Source: Deltaproteobacteria bacterium
Lineage (GTDB): Bacteria > Desulfobacterota > Desulfobaccia > Desulfobaccales > 0-14-0-80-60-11
Length of the DNA stretch: 33,059 nucleotides
Direction of reading: 5' to 3'
Assembly: GCA_037381685.1 (NCBI GenBank)
Contig: JARRQO010000023.1
Coordinates: 1-33,059 of the forward strand
Part shown: positions 10,641-17,465 of the stretch, in pieces
Position numbering within the stretch: position 1 is the stretch's first letter
Layout of the letters: the number at the start of each line of letters is the position of its first letter
Notes under the pieces: generated by a model
What the model was told of the DNA's origin: nothing
Seen by the model: the letters and a program-made list of their open reading frames with translations, nothing else
The model's database searches: none
Position numbers and translations under genes: made by a program

Positions 10641-11699
10641 CTACCAGGTTTGGGTCATCGCCTCCATCTCATCTTTCAGTTCCCGGGCCATTAACTTTTT
10701 TACGGCTTCCTTGGGTGCCAGGCCTTCATAGAGGATCTTGTAAGATGCGGTCACCAGGGGCATTTCCACCCCCAGGCGCTGCGCCAGGGCATATACGGCC
10801 CGGGAAGTCTTCACCCCTTCCGCCACCATGGCCATGCCGGTGAGAATCTGGTCCAGAGAAACGCCCTGCCCCAGCTTCATGCCGACCTGAAAATTGCGGC
10901 TCTGGGTGCTGGTGCAGGTGAGGATCAGGTCTCCCAAGCCGGCCAGGCCCGTGAGGGTCATGGGGTTGGCGCCGAGCCGCGCCCCCAGCCGAACCATTTC
11001 GGCCAGCCCCCGGGTGATGAGCGCCGCCCGGGGATTATCCCCCAGGCCCATGCCTGAAATTATCCCGGTGCCAATGGCAAAGATGTTTTTCAGCGCCCCT
11101 CCCAGCTCCACACCGGTAACGTCGTGGGAGGTGTAGACCCGAAAGTAGGGGGCGGAAAAGGTGCGTTGCAGAAAGTGGGCGATGTCCCGCTGCCGGCAGG
11201 CAATGGTCACCGCGGTGGGCTGTTTCTGGACCACTTCCCGGGCAAAACTGGGACCGGACAGCACCGCGTAAGGCGTCTCCGCCCCCATTTCCTCCCGCAC
11301 CACCCCTTCCATGGTGAGAAGCGAATCGATCTCCATGCCCTTGGTGGCGCTGATCAGCACTGCGCCGGCCGGCCAGTACCGCACCAGATCGCGCCCCACC
11401 TGCCGGAAGCCGTGAGAGGGCACCACCATAAGGATCATCCCGGCCCCGTTTAGGGCCTCGGGAAATTCCCGGGTGAAGCGAATCCGGGAGGACAGACGCA
11501 CCCCGGGCAAAAAGGTTTGGTTGATCCGTTCCCGGCTCAGGACTTCATAGACCTCGGGCTCCCTGACCCAAAGGCGGACGGTTAGTCCCTTTTCCGCCAA
11601 AAGCTGCGCCAGCGCGGTGCCCCAACTGCCGGCGCCGATTACGGCAATGGTTTTGGCCTCAGGAGATTCCAAGTTTGGATTCAACCTCGCCGTTACCAT
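10641..11699 (-). CDS. gpsA: NAD(P)H-dependent glycerol-3-phosphate dehydrogenase
   Basis: [14 protein letters not shown] Rossmann motif. [13 protein letters not shown] and [11 protein letters not shown] motifs. The ATG at 11699 overlaps the gyrA 3' end by 41 nt; an internal TTG (about 11672) is an alternative start. Confidence 0.9.
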
Positions 11700-13998
11700 T
11701 TTTTTCCGCCACCTTGGCTACACTTACCACCTTCTCTTCCGCCTCCAGGTCCATGAGCTTAACTCCCTGGGTGACCCGGCCGATCAAAGATATGCCTTGG
11801 GCCAGCATGCGCAAAATTTTACCACCATCGGTGACCAGCATGATTTCATCATCGCCGAACACTTGGAGGATGCTCATAATGGGGCCGTTGCGTTTGGTAA
11901 TATCCAGCCCCTTGACCCCCTGGCCGCCCCGGTGGTGCTCCGGATACTTCTTCGGGTCAGTGCGCTTGCCAAAGCCCCGTTCCGTCACCGTGAGGATGGT
12001 GCCCCCGGTACGTAACACTTCCATGCCCACCACCCGGTCCTCGGGGAGCACTTCCATGCCCTTGACTCCTCGGGCGATGCGGCCCATGTCCCGGACCTCC
12101 GACGACGCGAAGCGAATAATCTTGCCCAACTTGGTGCCCATCAGGATACTCTGCTCAGGTTCACTCATTCTAACGCTCACCAGTTCGTCCTCGGCGTCCA
12201 GGCTAATGGCAATAATGCCGCCGCTGCGAGGCCGTTGGAAGTTGGTCAGCTCGGTTTTCTTGATGGTCCCCCGCCGGGTGGCCATTACCACGGATACTCC
12301 CGGGTTAAATTCCCGCACCGACAGGATGGTGGCCAATTTTTCGCCTTCTCCCAACTGCAGCAGGTTGACGATGGCCTTGCCTTGAGCCGAAGGCGAGCCG
12401 ACGGGAATTTCGTGGACCTTCAGCCAAAACACCCGGCCTTTGCTGGTGAACACCAGAAAATAGTTGTGGGTGGAGGCGATGTACAGTTGGGAAACGAAAT
12501 CGTTTTCCCGGGTAACCATGCCCATGCGGCCTTTACCGCCCCGGCGCTGACTGCGGTAAATGGTCAGGGGGGTGCGCTTGATGTAACCCCGATGGCTGAT
12601 GGTCACCACCATCTCTTCATCGGCGATCAGGTCTTCCGCGGTGATATCCTGGGCCTGAGGCACGATATCGGTGCGCCGCTCGTCACCGTAGCGTTCCTTC
12701 AATTCAGTCAATTCCTGGGCGATGAGGGCCTTGACTTCGGTCTCTTCCGCCAGAATCCGGCGCAACCGGGCCATGTTCTCGGCCACCGCCTGGGCCTCCT
12801 GCACGATCTTTTGGCGTTCCATCCCCGTGAGTCGCTGCAACCGCATATCCAAAATGGCCTGGGCCTGAGTCTCGGACAGAGCATAGCGGCTCCGGGTTTC
12901 CTCCAAACTGAGGATATCCGGGGCCTCCTGGATGAACATACCGGCCATCAACTGCTGCTTGGCTTCCGGGGGATTGGCTGCGGCCCGGATAAGATCGATG
13001 ACCTGGTCCAGAAAATCCAGGGCAATGAGCAGGCCGTCCAGAATATGGGCCCGGGCCTCCGCCTGCTTCAACTCATAACGGGTGCGCCGGAGGATCACTT
13101 CCCGGCGGTGCTCCAGAAAATGCTGCAGCAGGTCCTTGAGGCTTAACAATTCCGGCCGGTTGTGGACGATGGCCACCAGATTGATGCCAAAGGTGACCTG
13201 CATCTGCGTGTGGAGATATAGCTGGTTCAGGATGGGTTGCGGCAGTTCATCCTTTTTGAGGAGGATCGCCACCCGCAGGCCTTCCCGGTCCGATTCATCC
13301 CGGATATCGGAGATGCCTTCCACCTTCTTGTCTTTCACCAACTCGGCGATGCGCTCAATCAGCCGGGCCTTGTTCACCTGATAGGGCAGCTCCCGGATAA
13401 TCAGGCTTTCCCGGCCACCTTTGCGCTCCACCGTCACCTTGGCCCGGAGGCGGATGAGCCCCCGGCCGGTGCGATAGGCCTCGGCAATGCCTTCGGCCCC
13501 GTAAATAAAGGCTCCGGTGGGGAAATCCGGCCCCGGCAGGATGGCCATCAGTTTTTCCAGGCTAATCTCCGGATTTTTGAGGCTGGCCAGGAGCGCGTCG
13601 CAAACCTCGCCCAGGTTATGGGGCGGGATGTTGGTGGCCATGCCCACGGCAATGCCCGAGCCCCCGTTGACCAGCAGGTTCGGCAGGCGGGTGGGCAGCA
13701 CCAGCGGCTCTTTGAGGGAGCCGTCGTAGTTGCCCACGAAATCCACCGTGTCTTTGTCCAGGTCCTGGAGCAGCTCGTGGGCCAGCCGGGTTAGCCTAAC
13801 CTCGGTGTAACGCATGGCCGCGGGCGCATCCCCGTCAATGGACCCGAAGTTGCCCTGGCCGTCCACCAGCGGATAGCGCAGGGAAAAGTCCTGGGCCATG
13901 CGCACGATGGCGTCATAGACCGCGGTGTCATCCTCAATGTTGATAGGTACCGCGTGTGCTTCCATCATATTGAATAGACTCTGTTGTTTGTTGTCCAT
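11659..13998 (-). CDS. gyrA: DNA gyrase subunit A homologue with an in-frame loss of the conserved N-terminal block (possibly defective, chimeric, or an assembly artefact)
   Basis: [45 protein letters not shown] (catalytic Tyr), [23 protein letters not shown], and a C-terminal beta-pinwheel with repeated G-rich blades. The N-terminus reads [24 protein letters not shown] directly fused to the GyrA residue-82 equivalent. No SD precedes the ATG. Confidence 0.85.
13934..13992. repeat. 59-bp direct repeat, copy A (equals the first ~22 codons of the gyrA ORF)
   Basis: tcaatgttgataggtaccgCgtgtgcttccatcatAttgaatagactctgttgtttgtt. Two mismatches to copy B. Weaker homology continues to the ATG at 13998. 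Confidence 0.95.
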
Positions 13999-14000
13999 TT

Positions 14001-14047
14001 TCTGTATTTATCTGCGTCCATCTGCGGCTTTAAATCTCAACCGCCGA
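14001..14047. repeat. CGCAGATG-type leader motif, degenerate copy immediately 5' of the gyrA start codon
   Basis: Minus strand: ccatcggcggttgagatttaaagccgcagatggacgcagataaatacagaaaATG. It aligns with the MNT leader (..tctgcggttaaatgaaagcgcagatgggcgcagatgaatacaga..). Confidence 0.85.
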
Positions 14048-14078
14048 TGGACCGGGATTAGCTTATTAACTGCTGCTC

Positions 14079-14101
14079 GTTCCCAAGCCCAACTTGGGAA
14101 C
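14079..14101 (-). terminator. Stem-loop gttcccaag-cccaa-cttgggaac 18 nt downstream of the hicA stop (no U-tract)
   Basis: Perfect 9-bp stem read from the sequence. The lack of a T-run makes intrinsic-terminator function uncertain. Confidence 0.3.
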
Positions 14102-14118
14102 CAGGGGGAAATCAGTAA

Positions 14119-14340
14119 CTACAATTCAAATTCACTCCGTGGAATCCCAGACTGTCGAATAATTGATTGCAGCGTTCCTATTCTAAGTTCGGCATGATCA
14201 ACAACTGGAATAGTAATCGTACTGCCCGGAACCATCTTCTGCATAAGAAGATGGCTGCCTCGCTGGCGAACTTCTTTGAATCCGTGATTCGATAAGATTC
14301 GGCAGACCTCTTTGCCGGAAAGAACGCGAAGTTTACCCAA
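14119..14340 (-). CDS. hicA: HicA-family mRNA interferase toxin (type II TA)
   Basis: MGKLRVLSGKEVCRILSNHGFKEVRQRGSHLLM matches the HicA/YcfA pattern (SGKE...GF...RQxGSH). TTG start with GAGG 7 nt upstream. 8-nt overlap with hicB. Confidence 0.85.
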   Translation of the reverse strand: MGKLRVLSGKEVCRILSNHGFKEVRQRGSHLLMQKMVPGSTITIPVVDHAELRIGTLQSIIRQSGIPRSEFEL

Positions 14341-14554
14341 CCGCTACCTCAACCTGGGTAATATAGACCTCTTCCCGGAGACGGTCTTTAATCTCCTCTT
14401 TAGATGCTGTCTCAAAAAACAGTTCCAAGGCTTCCTGGAGATTTTTCCGCGCTGCCTCGATGGTATCTCCCTGGCTGGCTATATCAAGTTCCGGACACAG
14501 AGATACATAGCCATTGCCTTCCCGTTCAATGATGGCGGTAAGTTGGCGCTTCAT
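14333..14554 (-). CDS. hicB: HicB-family antitoxin (short, UPF0150-type, no obvious DNA-binding extension)
   Basis: TAIIEREGNGYVSLCPELDIASQGDTIEAARKNLQEALELFFE is the typical HicB partial-RNase-H-fold core. GGAG RBS. Translationally coupled to hicA. Confidence 0.75.
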   Translation of the reverse strand: MKRQLTAIIEREGNGYVSLCPELDIASQGDTIEAARKNLQEALELFFETASKEEIKDRLREEVYITQVEVAVG

Positions 14555-14676
14555 GGTTTCTCCGATCTAATTTGCTGGTTTCTTTGCCCTCGGATAACCC
14601 ACAAGGCCATGCGAGTAGTCTTAACATAGTCTCTTTCCAATCTTTACCTGGAGGAATATTTCACTTTTTAGACTCT

Positions 14677-14735
14677 TCAATGTTGATAGGTACCGTGTGT
14701 GCTTCCATCATGTTGAATAGACTCTGTTGTTTGTT
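14677..14735. repeat. 59-bp direct repeat, copy B (between the ATPase stop and the hicB start)
   Basis: tcaatgttgataggtaccgTgtgtgcttccatcatGttgaatagactctgttgtttgtt. Minus-strand reading is ..[28 protein letters not shown]. It has CTG in place of the ATG and a 6-nt indel relative to copy A. Confidence 0.95.
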
Positions 14736-14780
14736 TGAAATGTCCAGGGTTGATCACCTAATATTTATATCAGCAATTAA

Positions 14781-16613
14781 TTAATTGGTGAAAGAAGAGA
14801 AGTGTTCAAATATTTCAATAACTTCTGCGAAGACACCAAAATCTTGCTTCTCTGCTTCACGGAGATAAAGCATCTTTAATCGGCCTATATCGAGTCTTGC
14901 TTGGGAAGCGAAGATTTTTATTATTTGGCGACCAGGAATTAGGTATTTCCAAAGATTATTTCCGTCCGCAAGGCTATTTTCCAATACTTGGAATTTTTCA
15001 GCAACAACTTGATTTATTATGCTTGCGTCAAGTTCACTGGTAATGCGCCCCTGCTCTTCGGAAGCTCGTCCTGAAATCAAATCTAATAACTCTTCTTTCG
15101 ATCGTTTATGGCAATCCTTGGCCATTAAATCAATATTACCGGCCTGCTGCCGGAAGATTGTGGAAACTTGTAGGGAAACTGCATAAGAAATAGTACTACG
15201 CGCGATCTCGCGAAGTCTTTTTAGAATTTCTTCCGGCGAAATTAGCCAAGATTCCTCAGATTCCATCTGAGAGAAAATTTGAGCTAGGATTTGCTCATCA
15301 AGGAAGTAATTTTCCAAATGATATCTTGGAAGTACACGGAAACGATCAAGAGCTCTGCTTCCTTCTAGCGGCTCTGAAGGTGAGGAAGGCGAGGTATCAC
15401 CATCACAAAGCATAAAAAAATCAACACCCCAAATTGTTTTCTCAAGTACCTGGGAAGATATTGTAGAAAAAGAGATGATGGTTGCCTTTCCTCCACTGGG
15501 AACTAAAACCAAGTTTGGAAATTTGTTTTTTATGATTGAGCCATAAACTAACTTGTCAAGACTGGCGTTCGTCCCTTCAATGAGCACTATACGCCTTCCT
15601 AATGCTACTATCCCTATAGATTGACCAAGTAAACGCAATGCTTGGTTTGTTTCATCATCCGAAGTAACAAGAATGGCTTGATTGGTCCCGGAATCATTGG
15701 GAGGAGCGATAAAAATCACGGAATGTTCAAGTGAAGCTGTAATGATGTCTGGAGAATGTGTGCAAAAGATAAATTGGTTTTTTTCCCCTATAGTTTCCAG
15801 AGTTCTCATTAGCTTAAAACTTAATTCAGGGTGCAAGTGCAATTCTGGTTCATCAAAAATCACAATGCTGTGAGAGGGTCTCCTGAGAAGGAAGTCAAAA
15901 ACGATGTTTACTACTTCCTGCTCACCGGAGCTAAGAGTTGTAACAGGAAATTGTTTTCCCTCGCATGCATAATCGAGGTGAGTCTTTTTTAAATCAGGGC
16001 TTAACAATTCCTTTGGTGAGAGGAGCTGACTGAAAGCCCGCTTAAATGGTTCTAAAGGGTCCTTGAAATTTAATTCCATGGAAGTCTCGCCTTGGAGCAT
16101 AAGCTCCTCGGCTTTTTTAGCAATACGGTCTCTTTGGCTCTGGACTTTGCGAAAAATTGAATGCAAGGTGTCTTGGAAGCGAGATTTAAGTCCTTCAAAT
16201 GTTGTATTCCAACCAATATTCTCTTCATATGGATCTTTAATATCCCATGAGAATTTGAAGGGAGTGATCTTCTGTATTGAACGGTCGCTTTCGAAGTTAA
16301 TTATACTGCTCCTCCATTTTGTCCGAAGGCGACCTTTGTGCAGAATGCCCTGGAGCCTCAATGCATCCTTTGGATCGCTAGTATCAATTTCCTTCTTGCC
16401 CCAATCCTTGATTTCTTCAGCAGTGGTCGCATGAATGACAAGCTGTATATTTTTCCTCGAAGTTGGATTCTGAAAATAATAAAGTAGGGCTTGTGCCAAT
16501 CGTGTCTTGCCTACCCCGTTCGGACCAGCAAGCACAATAATATTTGATAGCTCACCTGCTTCAAAACTTTTGATAGGTGGAACGTCTTTTACTGAGATAT
16601 GCGTTAATCGCAT
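14781..16613 (-). CDS. ABC-type (SMC/RecF-like, AAA_15/21-type) ATPase fused to a DUF4435/TOPRIM-like C-terminal module; OLD-family / single-polypeptide PARIS (AriA-AriB)-like candidate defence protein
   Basis: Walker A VLAGPNGVGKT; signature LSSGEQ; Walker B/D-loop IVIFDEPELHLHP; H-loop FCTHSP. C-terminal half has RRIVLIEGTNASLDK, VLVPSGGK, FFMLCDGD and LPRYHLENYFLD (Glu / DxD / ENY pattern of TOPRIM-like DUF4435). About 40% GC against a roughly 60% GC host. Confidence 0.7.
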   Translation of the reverse strand: MRLTHISVKDVPPIKSFEAGELSNIIVLAGPNGVGKTRLAQALLYYFQNPTSRKNIQLVIHATTAEEIKDWGKKEIDTSDPKDALRLQGILHKGRLRTKWRSSIINFESDRSIQKITPFKFSWDIKDPYEENIGWNTTFEGLKSRFQDTLHSIFRKVQSQRDRIAKKAEELMLQGETSMELNFKDPLEPFKRAFSQLLSPKELLSPDLKKTHLDYACEGKQFPVTTLSSGEQEVVNIVFDFLLRRPSHSIVIFDEPELHLHPELSFKLMRTLETIGEKNQFIFCTHSPDIITASLEHSVIFIAPPNDSGTNQAILVTSDDETNQALRLLGQSIGIVALGRRIVLIEGTNASLDKLVYGSIIKNKFPNLVLVPSGGKATIISFSTISSQVLEKTIWGVDFFMLCDGDTSPSSPSEPLEGSRALDRFRVLPRYHLENYFLDEQILAQIFSQMESEESWLISPEEILKRLREIARSTISYAVSLQVSTIFRQQAGNIDLMAKDCHKRSKEELLDLISGRASEEQGRITSELDASIINQVVAEKFQVLENSLADGNNLWKYLIPGRQIIKIFASQARLDIGRLKMLYLREAEKQDFGVFAEVIEIFEHFSSFTN

Positions 16614-16635
16614 TCTAAATTATCCTCTGGAAAAT

Positions 16636-16941
16636 CTAAGCGGCATACACAACCTCTTTGGTCGTCAAGATATTATGACGCCGAAACGGATTGCGAATAG
16701 CATCTTTTTCTACCAAGTCGACTTCATGGCCCAAAATTGCCGCCAGCTCATCCGACATCTCCACCCGGTTATCGAACATGATTCCTCCATCCGGTTCAAA
16801 AGTCACCAGCACATCCACATCACTATCAGTCCGAAAATCATCCCGCAGCACCGACCCGAACAGCGCCAATTCTTTGATCTTCCAGCGACGGCAGAAGTCT
16901 TCGATCTGCTTTAAGGGAATATTAATTTTGGCTTGAGGCAT
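16636..16941 (-). CDS. Minimal nucleotidyltransferase (MNT / MntA-like, Pol-beta superfamily) lacking an adjacent HEPN partner
   Basis: LALFGSVLRDDFRTDSDVDVLVTF is the GSx(10)DxD signature of MNT antitoxins. 101 aa. The stop lies 22 nt upstream of the ATPase start, which has its own GAGGA RBS. Confidence 0.85.
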   Translation of the reverse strand: MPQAKINIPLKQIEDFCRRWKIKELALFGSVLRDDFRTDSDVDVLVTFEPDGGIMFDNRVEMSDELAAILGHEVDLVEKDAIRNPFRRHNILTTKEVVYAA

Positions 16942-16961
16942 TTTTAGCTTAATCTGTATTC

Positions 16962-17007
16962 ATCTGCGCCCATCTGCGCTTTCATTTAACCGCAGATTAA
17001 CGCAGAT
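16962..17007. repeat. Double-stem hairpin ATCTGCG-ccc-ATCTGCG-(12 nt)-CGCAGAT-taa-CGCAGAT between the GxxExxY stop and the MNT start
   Basis: Read directly: two 7-nt arms are repeated on each side and are perfectly complementary. Located 3' of the GxxExxY gene and 5' of the MNT gene on the minus strand. Confidence 0.9.
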
Positions 17008-17026
17008 AAGAGCTGATAAACACGGA

Positions 17027-17422
17027 TTAATAATTATTCACAATACGCCTGATTTCCGCCTTGGGCCTGCCAAAATTAACCAGCAAACACACTGAAAGAT
17101 CAGTAGCCCTAAGATAATTCAAGCACTGGGCCATATGCACCTCATCCAAGGCCCTGGCTACCTTTAACTCTATAAGAACCTTGTCCTCGACTAACAAATC
17201 TGCAGCAAACTCCCCCACGACCATCGTATCGTATCTAACCTGAATGCCATATTGCTGCTTGGCCTCCAACCCGTTTTTTCTGAGTTCCAGCGCTAACGCA
17301 TTTTCATAAACCTTCTCCAAAAATCCACTTCCCAACGTATTACTTACCTTATAAACACAACCAATAATCCTTTCCGTAATACTATTCAAATCTAATCTAT
17401 ATTCATCCTTATTCATCTGCAT
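17027..17422 (-). CDS. GxxExxY family protein (PD-(D/E)XK-like small protein)
   Basis: GSGFLEKVYENALALEL (GxxExxY motif), ADLLVEDKVLIELKV, and the CLLVNFG C-terminal motif of the family. The start codon is embedded in a decamer tandem repeat. Confidence 0.85.
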   Translation of the reverse strand: MQMNKDEYRLDLNSITERIIGCVYKVSNTLGSGFLEKVYENALALELRKNGLEAKQQYGIQVRYDTMVVGEFAADLLVEDKVLIELKVARALDEVHMAQCLNYLRATDLSVCLLVNFGRPKAEIRRIVNNY

Positions 17423-17452
17423 TCATCTGCGTCCATCTGCGTTCATCTGCGG
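17401..17452. repeat. Tandem decamer array (about 5 units of rttcatctgc on the + strand, i.e. GCAGATGAAY on the minus strand)
   Basis: attcatcctt|attcatctgc|attcatctgc|gtccatctgc|gttcatctgc|gg. It covers the GxxExxY start codon and its first codons (MQMNKDE), and it fills most of the 43-nt gap to the LivK-like stop codon. Confidence 0.9.
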
Positions 17453-17465
17453 TTAAATTATTTTT

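Follow-up and report, generated by a model that had tools for sequence, protein, structure and literature searches.

What is encoded in the low-GC segment next to gyrA in a Deltaproteobacteria bacterium (assembly GCA_037381685.1, contig JARRQO010000023.1), and does it belong to a known phage defence system? The stretch of DNA analysed comprises 33,059 nucleotides (nt) and is referred to as the window. The gene in question, designated ariAB, is located at 14781..16613 on the minus strand. A first-pass annotation had read it as a single-chain ATP-binding cassette (ABC) ATPase with a DUF4435/TOPRIM-like nuclease, i.e. as a fused AriA-AriB or OLD-like protein. This assignment is supported by the merged AriAB model of PADLOC, by AriA as top sequence match in the PDB and by AriB as the only significant fold of the C-terminal half. 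With a probability of roughly 0.8, ariAB is a merged PARIS gene (AriAB), composed of an AriA-type ATPase (residues 1-305), a conserved linker, an AriB-type nuclease (residues 341-450) and a helical bundle (residues 451-610), with a function proposed by analogy with PARIS from E. coli.

The fused gene and its conserved motifs

ariAB is an open reading frame (ORF) of 610 amino acids (aa) that starts with ATG and ends with a stop codon at 14781-14783. Its reading as a fused ABC ATPase and DUF4435-type TOPRIM nuclease is based on the ORF, PADLOC AriAB, homologues and the ratio of nonsynonymous to synonymous substitution rates (dN/dS). All features of the gene are given on the minus strand. The AriA-like ABC ATPase comprises residues 1-305 (15699..16613) with a short helical insert at about residues 48-187 and was delimited by Pfam, PDB sequence matches and fold. 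It contains Walker A GPNGVGKT (residues 30-37, 16503..16526; G30, N32, G33, G35 and K36 invariant), the ABC signature LSSGEQ (residues 227-232, 15918..15935; L227, G230 and E231 invariant), Walker B and D-loop IVIFDEPELHLHP (residues 250-262, 15828..15866; F253, D254, E255, P256, E257, H259, L260 and H261 invariant) and the H-loop CTHSP (residues 284-288, 15750..15764; T285, H286 and S287 invariant). The five Walker A residues, G230, E231, D254, E255 and H286 do not vary among 42 diverse homologues. In the same 42 homologues, N311, Q312, A313, V316, D320, A325, L326, G330, S332, G334 and L338 are invariant. They belong to the linker between ATPase and nuclease (residues 306-340, 15594..15698, NQA..V..DDETNQAL.LLGQSIG), which was defined by conservation and column entropy.

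The AriB-like TOPRIM nuclease domain (residues 341-450, 15264..15593) was assigned using PADLOC AriB, a weak DUF4435 match, invariant residues and fold. It is followed by an AriB-like C-terminal helical bundle (residues 451-610, 14784..15263), for which AlphaFold2 (AF2) models, PADLOC AriAB, Foldseek and entropy provide the evidence. IEG begins at residue 345, SGGK at 373, CDGD at 403 and HLENYFLD at 432. All eight motifs quoted in the first-pass annotation, from Walker A to HLENYFLD, were recovered at their places, and each occurs exactly once. In the nuclease, E346, G347, D404, D406, H432, E434 and N435 are invariant in the 42 homologues; E346, D353, D404, D406 and E434 show no or almost no variation when a broadened set is included. 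AriB has an N-terminal toprim-like domain, a C-terminal helical bundle and an active site formed by E26, D30, D88, E90 and E122 (Deep et al., PMC10802264). The distances between E346, D404, D406 and E434 are 58, 2 and 28 residues, those between E26, D88, E90 and E122 of AriB are 62, 2 and 32. E346, D353, D404, D406 and E434 are putative metal-binding residues whose one-to-one equivalence with AriB is suggested by spacing, not by superposition.

The ORF is no chance product. Homologues of equal length number more than 1185, the motif residues are invariant, dN/dS is 0.17 in comparison with an 88%-identical relative (L002), and a counterpart exists on independent contigs. The latter are two metagenome contigs (L087, L088) with the gene arrangement of the window and 99.7-99.8% nucleotide identity. 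ariAB is under purifying selection. A promoter and terminator scan yielded matches at chance level.

Sequence profiles connect ariAB with PARIS

In hidden Markov model (HMM) searches, the PADLOC merged AriAB model PDLC02981 matches the protein with E=9.7e-55 (184 bits, residues 165-574) and the second merged model PDLC02982 with 2.8e-17. PADLOC AriA models match at about 1e-22. Residues 297-610 by themselves are recognised by AriAB (3.7e-24) and by PDLC02983, the model of stand-alone AriB (5.6e-6), which covers residues ~340-473. When a profile of the 42 homologues was compared with the PDB, AriA (8ux9, 8v45-49) was the best sequence match (E about 1.7e-12), and PtuA, GajA, UvrA, Rad50 and OLD (6p74) ranked behind it.

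A Pfam scan of the whole protein returned only ATPase families above cut-off, namely AAA_21 (4e-19) and AAA_15 (2.7e-17). SMC_N scores 37 bits, and Rad50, SMC and UvrA match at E values of 1e-5 to 0.1, as might be expected of a housekeeping repair ATPase of the RecF/SbcC/SMC type. This interpretation is effectively refuted: SMC_N remains below its 40-bit cut-off, the AF2 model contains no long coiled coil, the GC content is 41% in a genome with 60% GC, no genomic context is conserved in 80 loci, and a fused AriB-like nuclease is present. NCBIfam holds no family-level model that matches, and its partial PtuA, retron-effector and ABC matches are far below their cut-offs.

A more serious competitor would be an OLD-family nuclease of class 1 such as P2 Old or the OLD of Thermus scotoductus (PDB 6P74), whose OLD-type TOPRIM would degrade DNA rather than tRNA. 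These proteins are likewise single chains of ABC ATPase and TOPRIM in a phage-defence context and agree with ariAB in overall architecture. Among the PADLOC models, ATPase-Toprim and Old (E=1.8e-14) also match ariAB. GajA and OLD 6p74 are among the results of the PDB profile search, and a fold search with the whole chain is led by the retron Eco8 OLD nuclease, GajA and PtuA (see below). However, these matches essentially concern the ATPase, as PADLOC Old covers residues 247-385 only, and the E value of the AriAB model is lower by 40 orders of magnitude. Moreover, the Pfam family OLD-like_TOPRIM (PF20469) does not match the window protein and was found in just 1 of 22 family members (E=0.13). 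The TOPRIM of ariAB, accompanied by a helical bundle, is of the DUF4435/AriB type instead. Together with the fold of the C-terminal half, this renders an OLD nuclease improbable.

The predicted fold of the C-terminal half

The full-length AlphaFold model (predicted local distance difference test score, pLDDT, 81) finds the retron Eco8 OLD nuclease, GajA and PtuA as leading fold matches. These matches are driven by the ATPase and are uninformative on the nuclease. Since the ATPase dominates the whole-chain search, a separate C-terminal model was needed. The AF2 model of residues 318-610 (pLDDT 82, predicted template modelling score 0.80) was compared with the PDB using Foldseek. AriB chains 8v46_D (E=7.3e-4) and 8ux9_A (E=1.2e-3) were the sole significant matches, with a probability of 1.00 and ~330 aligned columns that extend over the full length of AriB (~305 residues). 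The next best PDB fold match has E=0.27, and neither OLD nor GajA TOPRIM domains are found below this value. A comparison of predicted structures, as advised in the first-pass annotation, thus singles out AriB. The nuclease modules of GajA (Gabija), the retron Eco8 OLD effector and PtuA (Septu/retron) differ: these proteins have the AAA_15/21 ABC ATPase fold in common with ariAB, but use other nuclease modules and partners (GajB, reverse transcriptase/msDNA and PtuB, respectively), and none matches its C-terminal half.

The fold also accounts for the C-terminal tail of ~140 aa that had been described as helical and unassigned. It is helical, as residues 451-610 are all-helical in the AF2 models, but it can be assigned. 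The last 140 aa alone match positions 580-658 of the AriAB profile (E=3.1e-4), and the tail corresponds to AriB's own helical bundle, because the fold alignments run through the whole of AriB, which is described as a toprim-like domain plus helical bundle. This bundle contains the most variable segment of the family, residues ~500-560 (window 14940-15110), with a column entropy of 2.0-2.5 bits. The segment is a candidate specificity surface. Most conserved are the ATPase C-lobe and the linker (0.4-0.7 bits), with low entropy at residues 321-340.

How well does ariAB fit a merged PARIS?

The known merged PARIS proteins (clades 'merged 1' and 'merged 2' of Burman et al. 2024; PADLOC models PDLC02981 and PDLC02982) have the same single chain, i.e. 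an AAA_15/AAA_21 ATPase followed by a DUF4435-type TOPRIM and bundle, and ariAB, too, is a stand-alone gene. Two-gene PARIS from E. coli B185 (AriA, 464 aa, and AriB, ~305 aa; PDB 8UX9, 8V45-8V49) resembles it in ATPase, nuclease fold, bundle and acidic residues.

A number of observations weigh against this classification. The 184 bits obtained with the merged model are below the expectation for a core member and do not represent a within-subfamily score, and ~80 N-terminal positions of the profile have no counterpart in ariAB. Pfam DUF4435 (PF14491) remains below cut-off for the nuclease half (13.2 versus 27 bits, E=0.076), and among 22 family members, no more than 3 have a match with E<1 (best 5.8e-4). 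In separate scans of the segments 330-470, 470-610 and 297-610, this sub-threshold DUF4435 match was the only one, and the tail had none. Neither the first nor a broadened sequence profile of the C-terminal half found E. coli AriB among PDB sequences; therefore, PADLOC HMMs and the fold search were needed to establish the link to AriB. The TM-scores to AriB are modest (0.44-0.47, root mean square deviation ~10 Å), and the identity in the Foldseek alignment is only ~14%. Furthermore, the ATPase insert, which separates the Walker A region from the signature-proximal block, comprises 139 aa compared to 271 aa in AriA, and consists of one long helix (142-173) and short elements in the AF2 model. 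As a result of this difference in length, the protein lacks most of the IS1/IS2 coiled coil from which the hexameric propeller and the trigger pores of AriA are built, and it probably has neither the hexamer blades nor the trigger pores. Finally, a literature search found no published experiments on any merged AriAB.

The claim of a DUF4435/TOPRIM-like C-terminal half has to be divided accordingly. It is borne out by PARIS-specific HMMs and the AriB fold, but not by Pfam DUF4435. Judged by Pfam alone, the half shows no significant DUF4435/TOPRIM similarity, an outcome that the first-pass annotation had considered fatal; only the PARIS-specific HMMs and the fold lead to a different view. Since the PADLOC AriB model matches at 5.6e-6, the homology to DUF4435-type proteins is genuine, yet falls outside Pfam's boundary. 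Merged AriAB proteins are already known; the gene in the window adds a member beyond the Pfam DUF4435 boundary with a reduced sensor insert.

A widespread stand-alone family

More than 1185 homologues (cluster representatives) of the AriAB protein were found, and those listed have nearly all 600-625 aa. Source databases give the family members of ~608 aa no more specific name than 'ATP-binding protein' or 'AAA family ATPase'. A profile of the nuclease half, used in an exhaustive search, returned 770 representatives at E<=1e-3. Matches of ~290-320 aa looked like stand-alone relatives of AriB size. They were rejected, as they begin inside the conserved linker and represent fragments or split calls of fused genes; therefore, there is no evidence for a close two-gene form.

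In a genome scan, 220 relatives were identified and 80 loci fetched (44-77% identity, >20 phyla). Neither tblastn with the proteins of the island nor all-against-all clustering of neighbours revealed a conserved neighbour across these 80 loci; the largest neighbour cluster is an integrase at 4 loci. As no neighbouring gene is conserved, ariAB is a stand-alone single-gene system. At 62 of 68 loci, the GC content of the gene is below that of the flanking DNA; the average deficit is 9 points.

Such a gene might also be a selfish addiction-type or stress-response module that is kept at its locus and is not primarily directed against phages. It occupies the same chromosomal site in diverged relatives, its identity of 44-65% across phyla is unusually high for a defence sensor, and toxin-antitoxin genes surround it. 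On the other hand, every detectable relationship leads to ATPase-nuclease systems of phage defence, and the patchy distribution over phyla as well as the GC deficit are typical of mobile defence genes. Hence, an addiction or stress module is distinctly unlikely, and the merged PARIS remains the preferred interpretation.

How might a fused AriAB be activated?

According to Burman et al. 2024 (PMC11464382), AriA and AriB occur 'occasionally fused', and the merged ariAB genes form two clades with a single origin in two-gene clade 9. In E. coli PARIS, an AriA hexamer holds three AriB, which are released upon binding of the trigger Ocr (PMC11464382, PMC12409363). Released AriB dimerises and cleaves tRNA-Lys, but also tRNA-Thr and tRNA-Asn (PMC11464382, PMC12409363). 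Cleavage of tRNA anticodon loops and a defence response to Ocr-like anti-restriction proteins are known only from the E. coli system. By analogy, the role of an abortive-infection effector, as originally proposed, can be inferred for AriAB. The ATPase would be the sensor that holds the nuclease silent until a phage-encoded trigger switches AriAB on. The TOPRIM domains would then pair and cut the anticodon loops of host tRNAs, translation would stop and the infection would be aborted.

In contrast to two-gene PARIS, the nuclease of the fused protein cannot be released. Activation must differ from that of canonical PARIS, because ATPase and nuclease belong to one covalent chain and the helical insert has only about half the size of that in AriA. 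Most likely, it would involve a re-orientation driven by ATP or the trigger, which would allow two tethered nuclease domains to dimerise, either inside one ATPase dimer or between different ones. As a best guess, a head-to-tail ATPase dimer might keep the tethered TOPRIM domains apart until a trigger binds or the ATP state changes. A broader hypothesis can be put forward only tentatively and is rather doubtful at present: The ~608-aa family might represent a compact merged PARIS minus most of the coiled-coil blades, which would neither form an AriA6 propeller nor release a nuclease but be activated in cis, and in which the helices at ~500-560 instead of the insert would confer trigger or target specificity.

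A mosaic island upstream of gyrA

ariAB lies in an island at ~14.0-17.46 kb with 41-43% GC, flanked by gyrA and a gene for a periplasmic binding protein with 58-62% GC. The 1-kb windows over 14001-17000 (41-43%, compared to 58-61% for gyrA and the opposite flank) have the lowest GC of the window, in agreement with the first-pass annotation. Outside the island, the window consists of core chromosome and encodes TamA/TamB, a UvrD-like helicase, GpsA, PFK, MetRS and an acyl-CoA synthetase.

In the five metagenome contigs L001-L005, the 88%-identical gene is flanked solely by the binding-protein gene and a full-length gyrA of 835 aa. Between the window and L002, the nucleotide identity is 86.8% for ariAB and 82-84% for the flanking genes. 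dN/dS is 0.17 for ariAB and 0.115-0.13 for the flanking genes, and the synonymous divergence (dS) is 0.41 for ariAB and 0.6-0.7 for gyrA and the binding-protein gene. In relatives whose hosts have ~60% GC, ariAB stays at about 41-44% GC. The low dS and the constantly low GC could be due to exchange between lineages or to a compositional constraint. The postulated horizontal acquisition can be upheld in part: The GC content supports a foreign origin, but not a recent arrival in this genome, because ariAB is syntenic in relatives whose flanks are ~82% identical. Despite its foreign base composition, ariAB has thus either been present at this site for a long time or been exchanged here repeatedly, and selection maintains it.

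The closest upstream neighbour is an orphan MNT-type nucleotidyltransferase of 101 aa (16636..16941, minus strand; NTP_transf_2 5.3e-18, PADLOC PDC-S09 1.3e-28) located 22 nt upstream of ariAB. MNT is present in L006/L007, which derive from a metagenome-assembled genome ('uncultured delta proteobacterium') and have the order MNT-ariAB-gyrA, and absent in L001-L005, where homology resumes ~20 nt inside the MNT 3' end. This suggests, from the alignment, that MNT was lost by deletion in L001-L005. On the other side, between ariAB and gyrA, a toxin-antitoxin pair is encoded at 14119..14554 on the minus strand, composed of hicB (14333-14554) and hicA (14119-14340). HicA_toxin matches with 1.1e-16, HicB/UPF0150 weakly.

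Could ariAB form a two-gene module with one of these neighbours? MNT would then modify and silence the nuclease as in type VII toxin-antitoxin systems, or HicBA would be the partner. MNT ends shortly before ariAB on the same strand, it has no HEPN partner, its adjacency to ariAB is shared by L006/L007, and it matches the PADLOC candidate PDC-S09. However, an MNT homologue adjoins the family gene in only 1 of the 80 loci, as does gyrA, and this locus is the window's own lineage. No neighbour is conserved, and L001-L005 carry an intact ariAB without MNT and HicBA. A two-gene module is thus very improbable, and an MNT-AriAB module was rejected on the basis of the conserved-neighbour test. A link to gyrA beyond the window's lineage was dropped for the same reason, i.e. 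no partner was found in 80 loci. The data favour AriAB as a single-gene merged PARIS.

HicBA is absent from the relatives L001-L007. The insert of ~680 nt is bracketed by a direct repeat of the gyrA start (-24 to +41) of 62-65 nt with 95% identity. The copies are located at 13931-13992 and 14674-14735 in the window, and L087 has the same structure. With the insert, the 5' end of gyrA is restored, and a remnant of 16 codons (MMEAHTVPINIEESKK and stop) persists after ariAB. It resembles integrative elements that rebuild their target gene. Between hicA and the repeat element, a peptide LIPVHRRL (window 14038-14061, minus strand) resembles GyrA residues 41-48 (LKPVHRRV). It is also present in L087 and may be due to chance or be a decayed gyrA fragment carried by the insert.

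A further component is a GxxExxY PD-(D/E)XK gene (17027-17422; Pfam PDDEXK_3 1.3e-40) in a cassette of ~475 nt (16984..17458, minus strand). Inverted repeats of 50 nt bound the cassette; their 14-nt tips ATTTAACCGCAGAT are identical, and their body consists of CGCAGATGNA decamers. The decamer pattern matches 6 times in the window, always within the island, whereas 0.03 matches are expected. Partial solo copies are found at 13997-14036 and 16949-16985, just upstream of the start codons of gyrA and MNT. The unit is a candidate for a small mobile cassette. Altogether, the island has a mosaic structure.

A deletion in gyrA

The gyrA ORF (11659-13998, minus strand) carries an exact in-frame deletion of 195 nt (65 codons) with the junction at 13925-13935. 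The missing codons correspond to residues 15-79 of the 835-aa GyrA of relatives and include the region aligned before E. coli residue 81. Contig L087 shares the island and the duplication with the window, at 99.7% identity over 3729 nt, but runs on into an intact gyrA. Because this otherwise near-identical contig lacks it, the deletion is specific to the window's sequence and reflects either an assembly error or a real variant, which would probably be inactivating. Scans of the metagenome collection with the two junctions of the gyrA region yielded no match. Exact-protein look-ups gave no match for AriAB, the shortened GyrA and HicA; the GxxExxY protein alone led to independent contigs.

Biological significance

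The locus upstream of gyrA is a small insertion hotspot that has accommodated a defence gene, two modules of the toxin-antitoxin type and a small repeat-bounded cassette. With the assignment to merged PARIS, a family with more than 1185 cluster representatives in >20 phyla, publicly labelled 'ATP-binding protein' or 'AAA family ATPase', receives a specific name. Since the effector cannot be released, fused AriAB is a natural test of PARIS activation that should reveal which steps, i.e. release, dimerisation or ATP state, are really required. The compact and well-conserved version would be a convenient subject for such studies. If activation in cis proved true, the family would represent a mechanistically distinct, extremely widespread single-gene immune sensor that targets tRNA and is now concealed under the annotation 'ATP-binding protein'.

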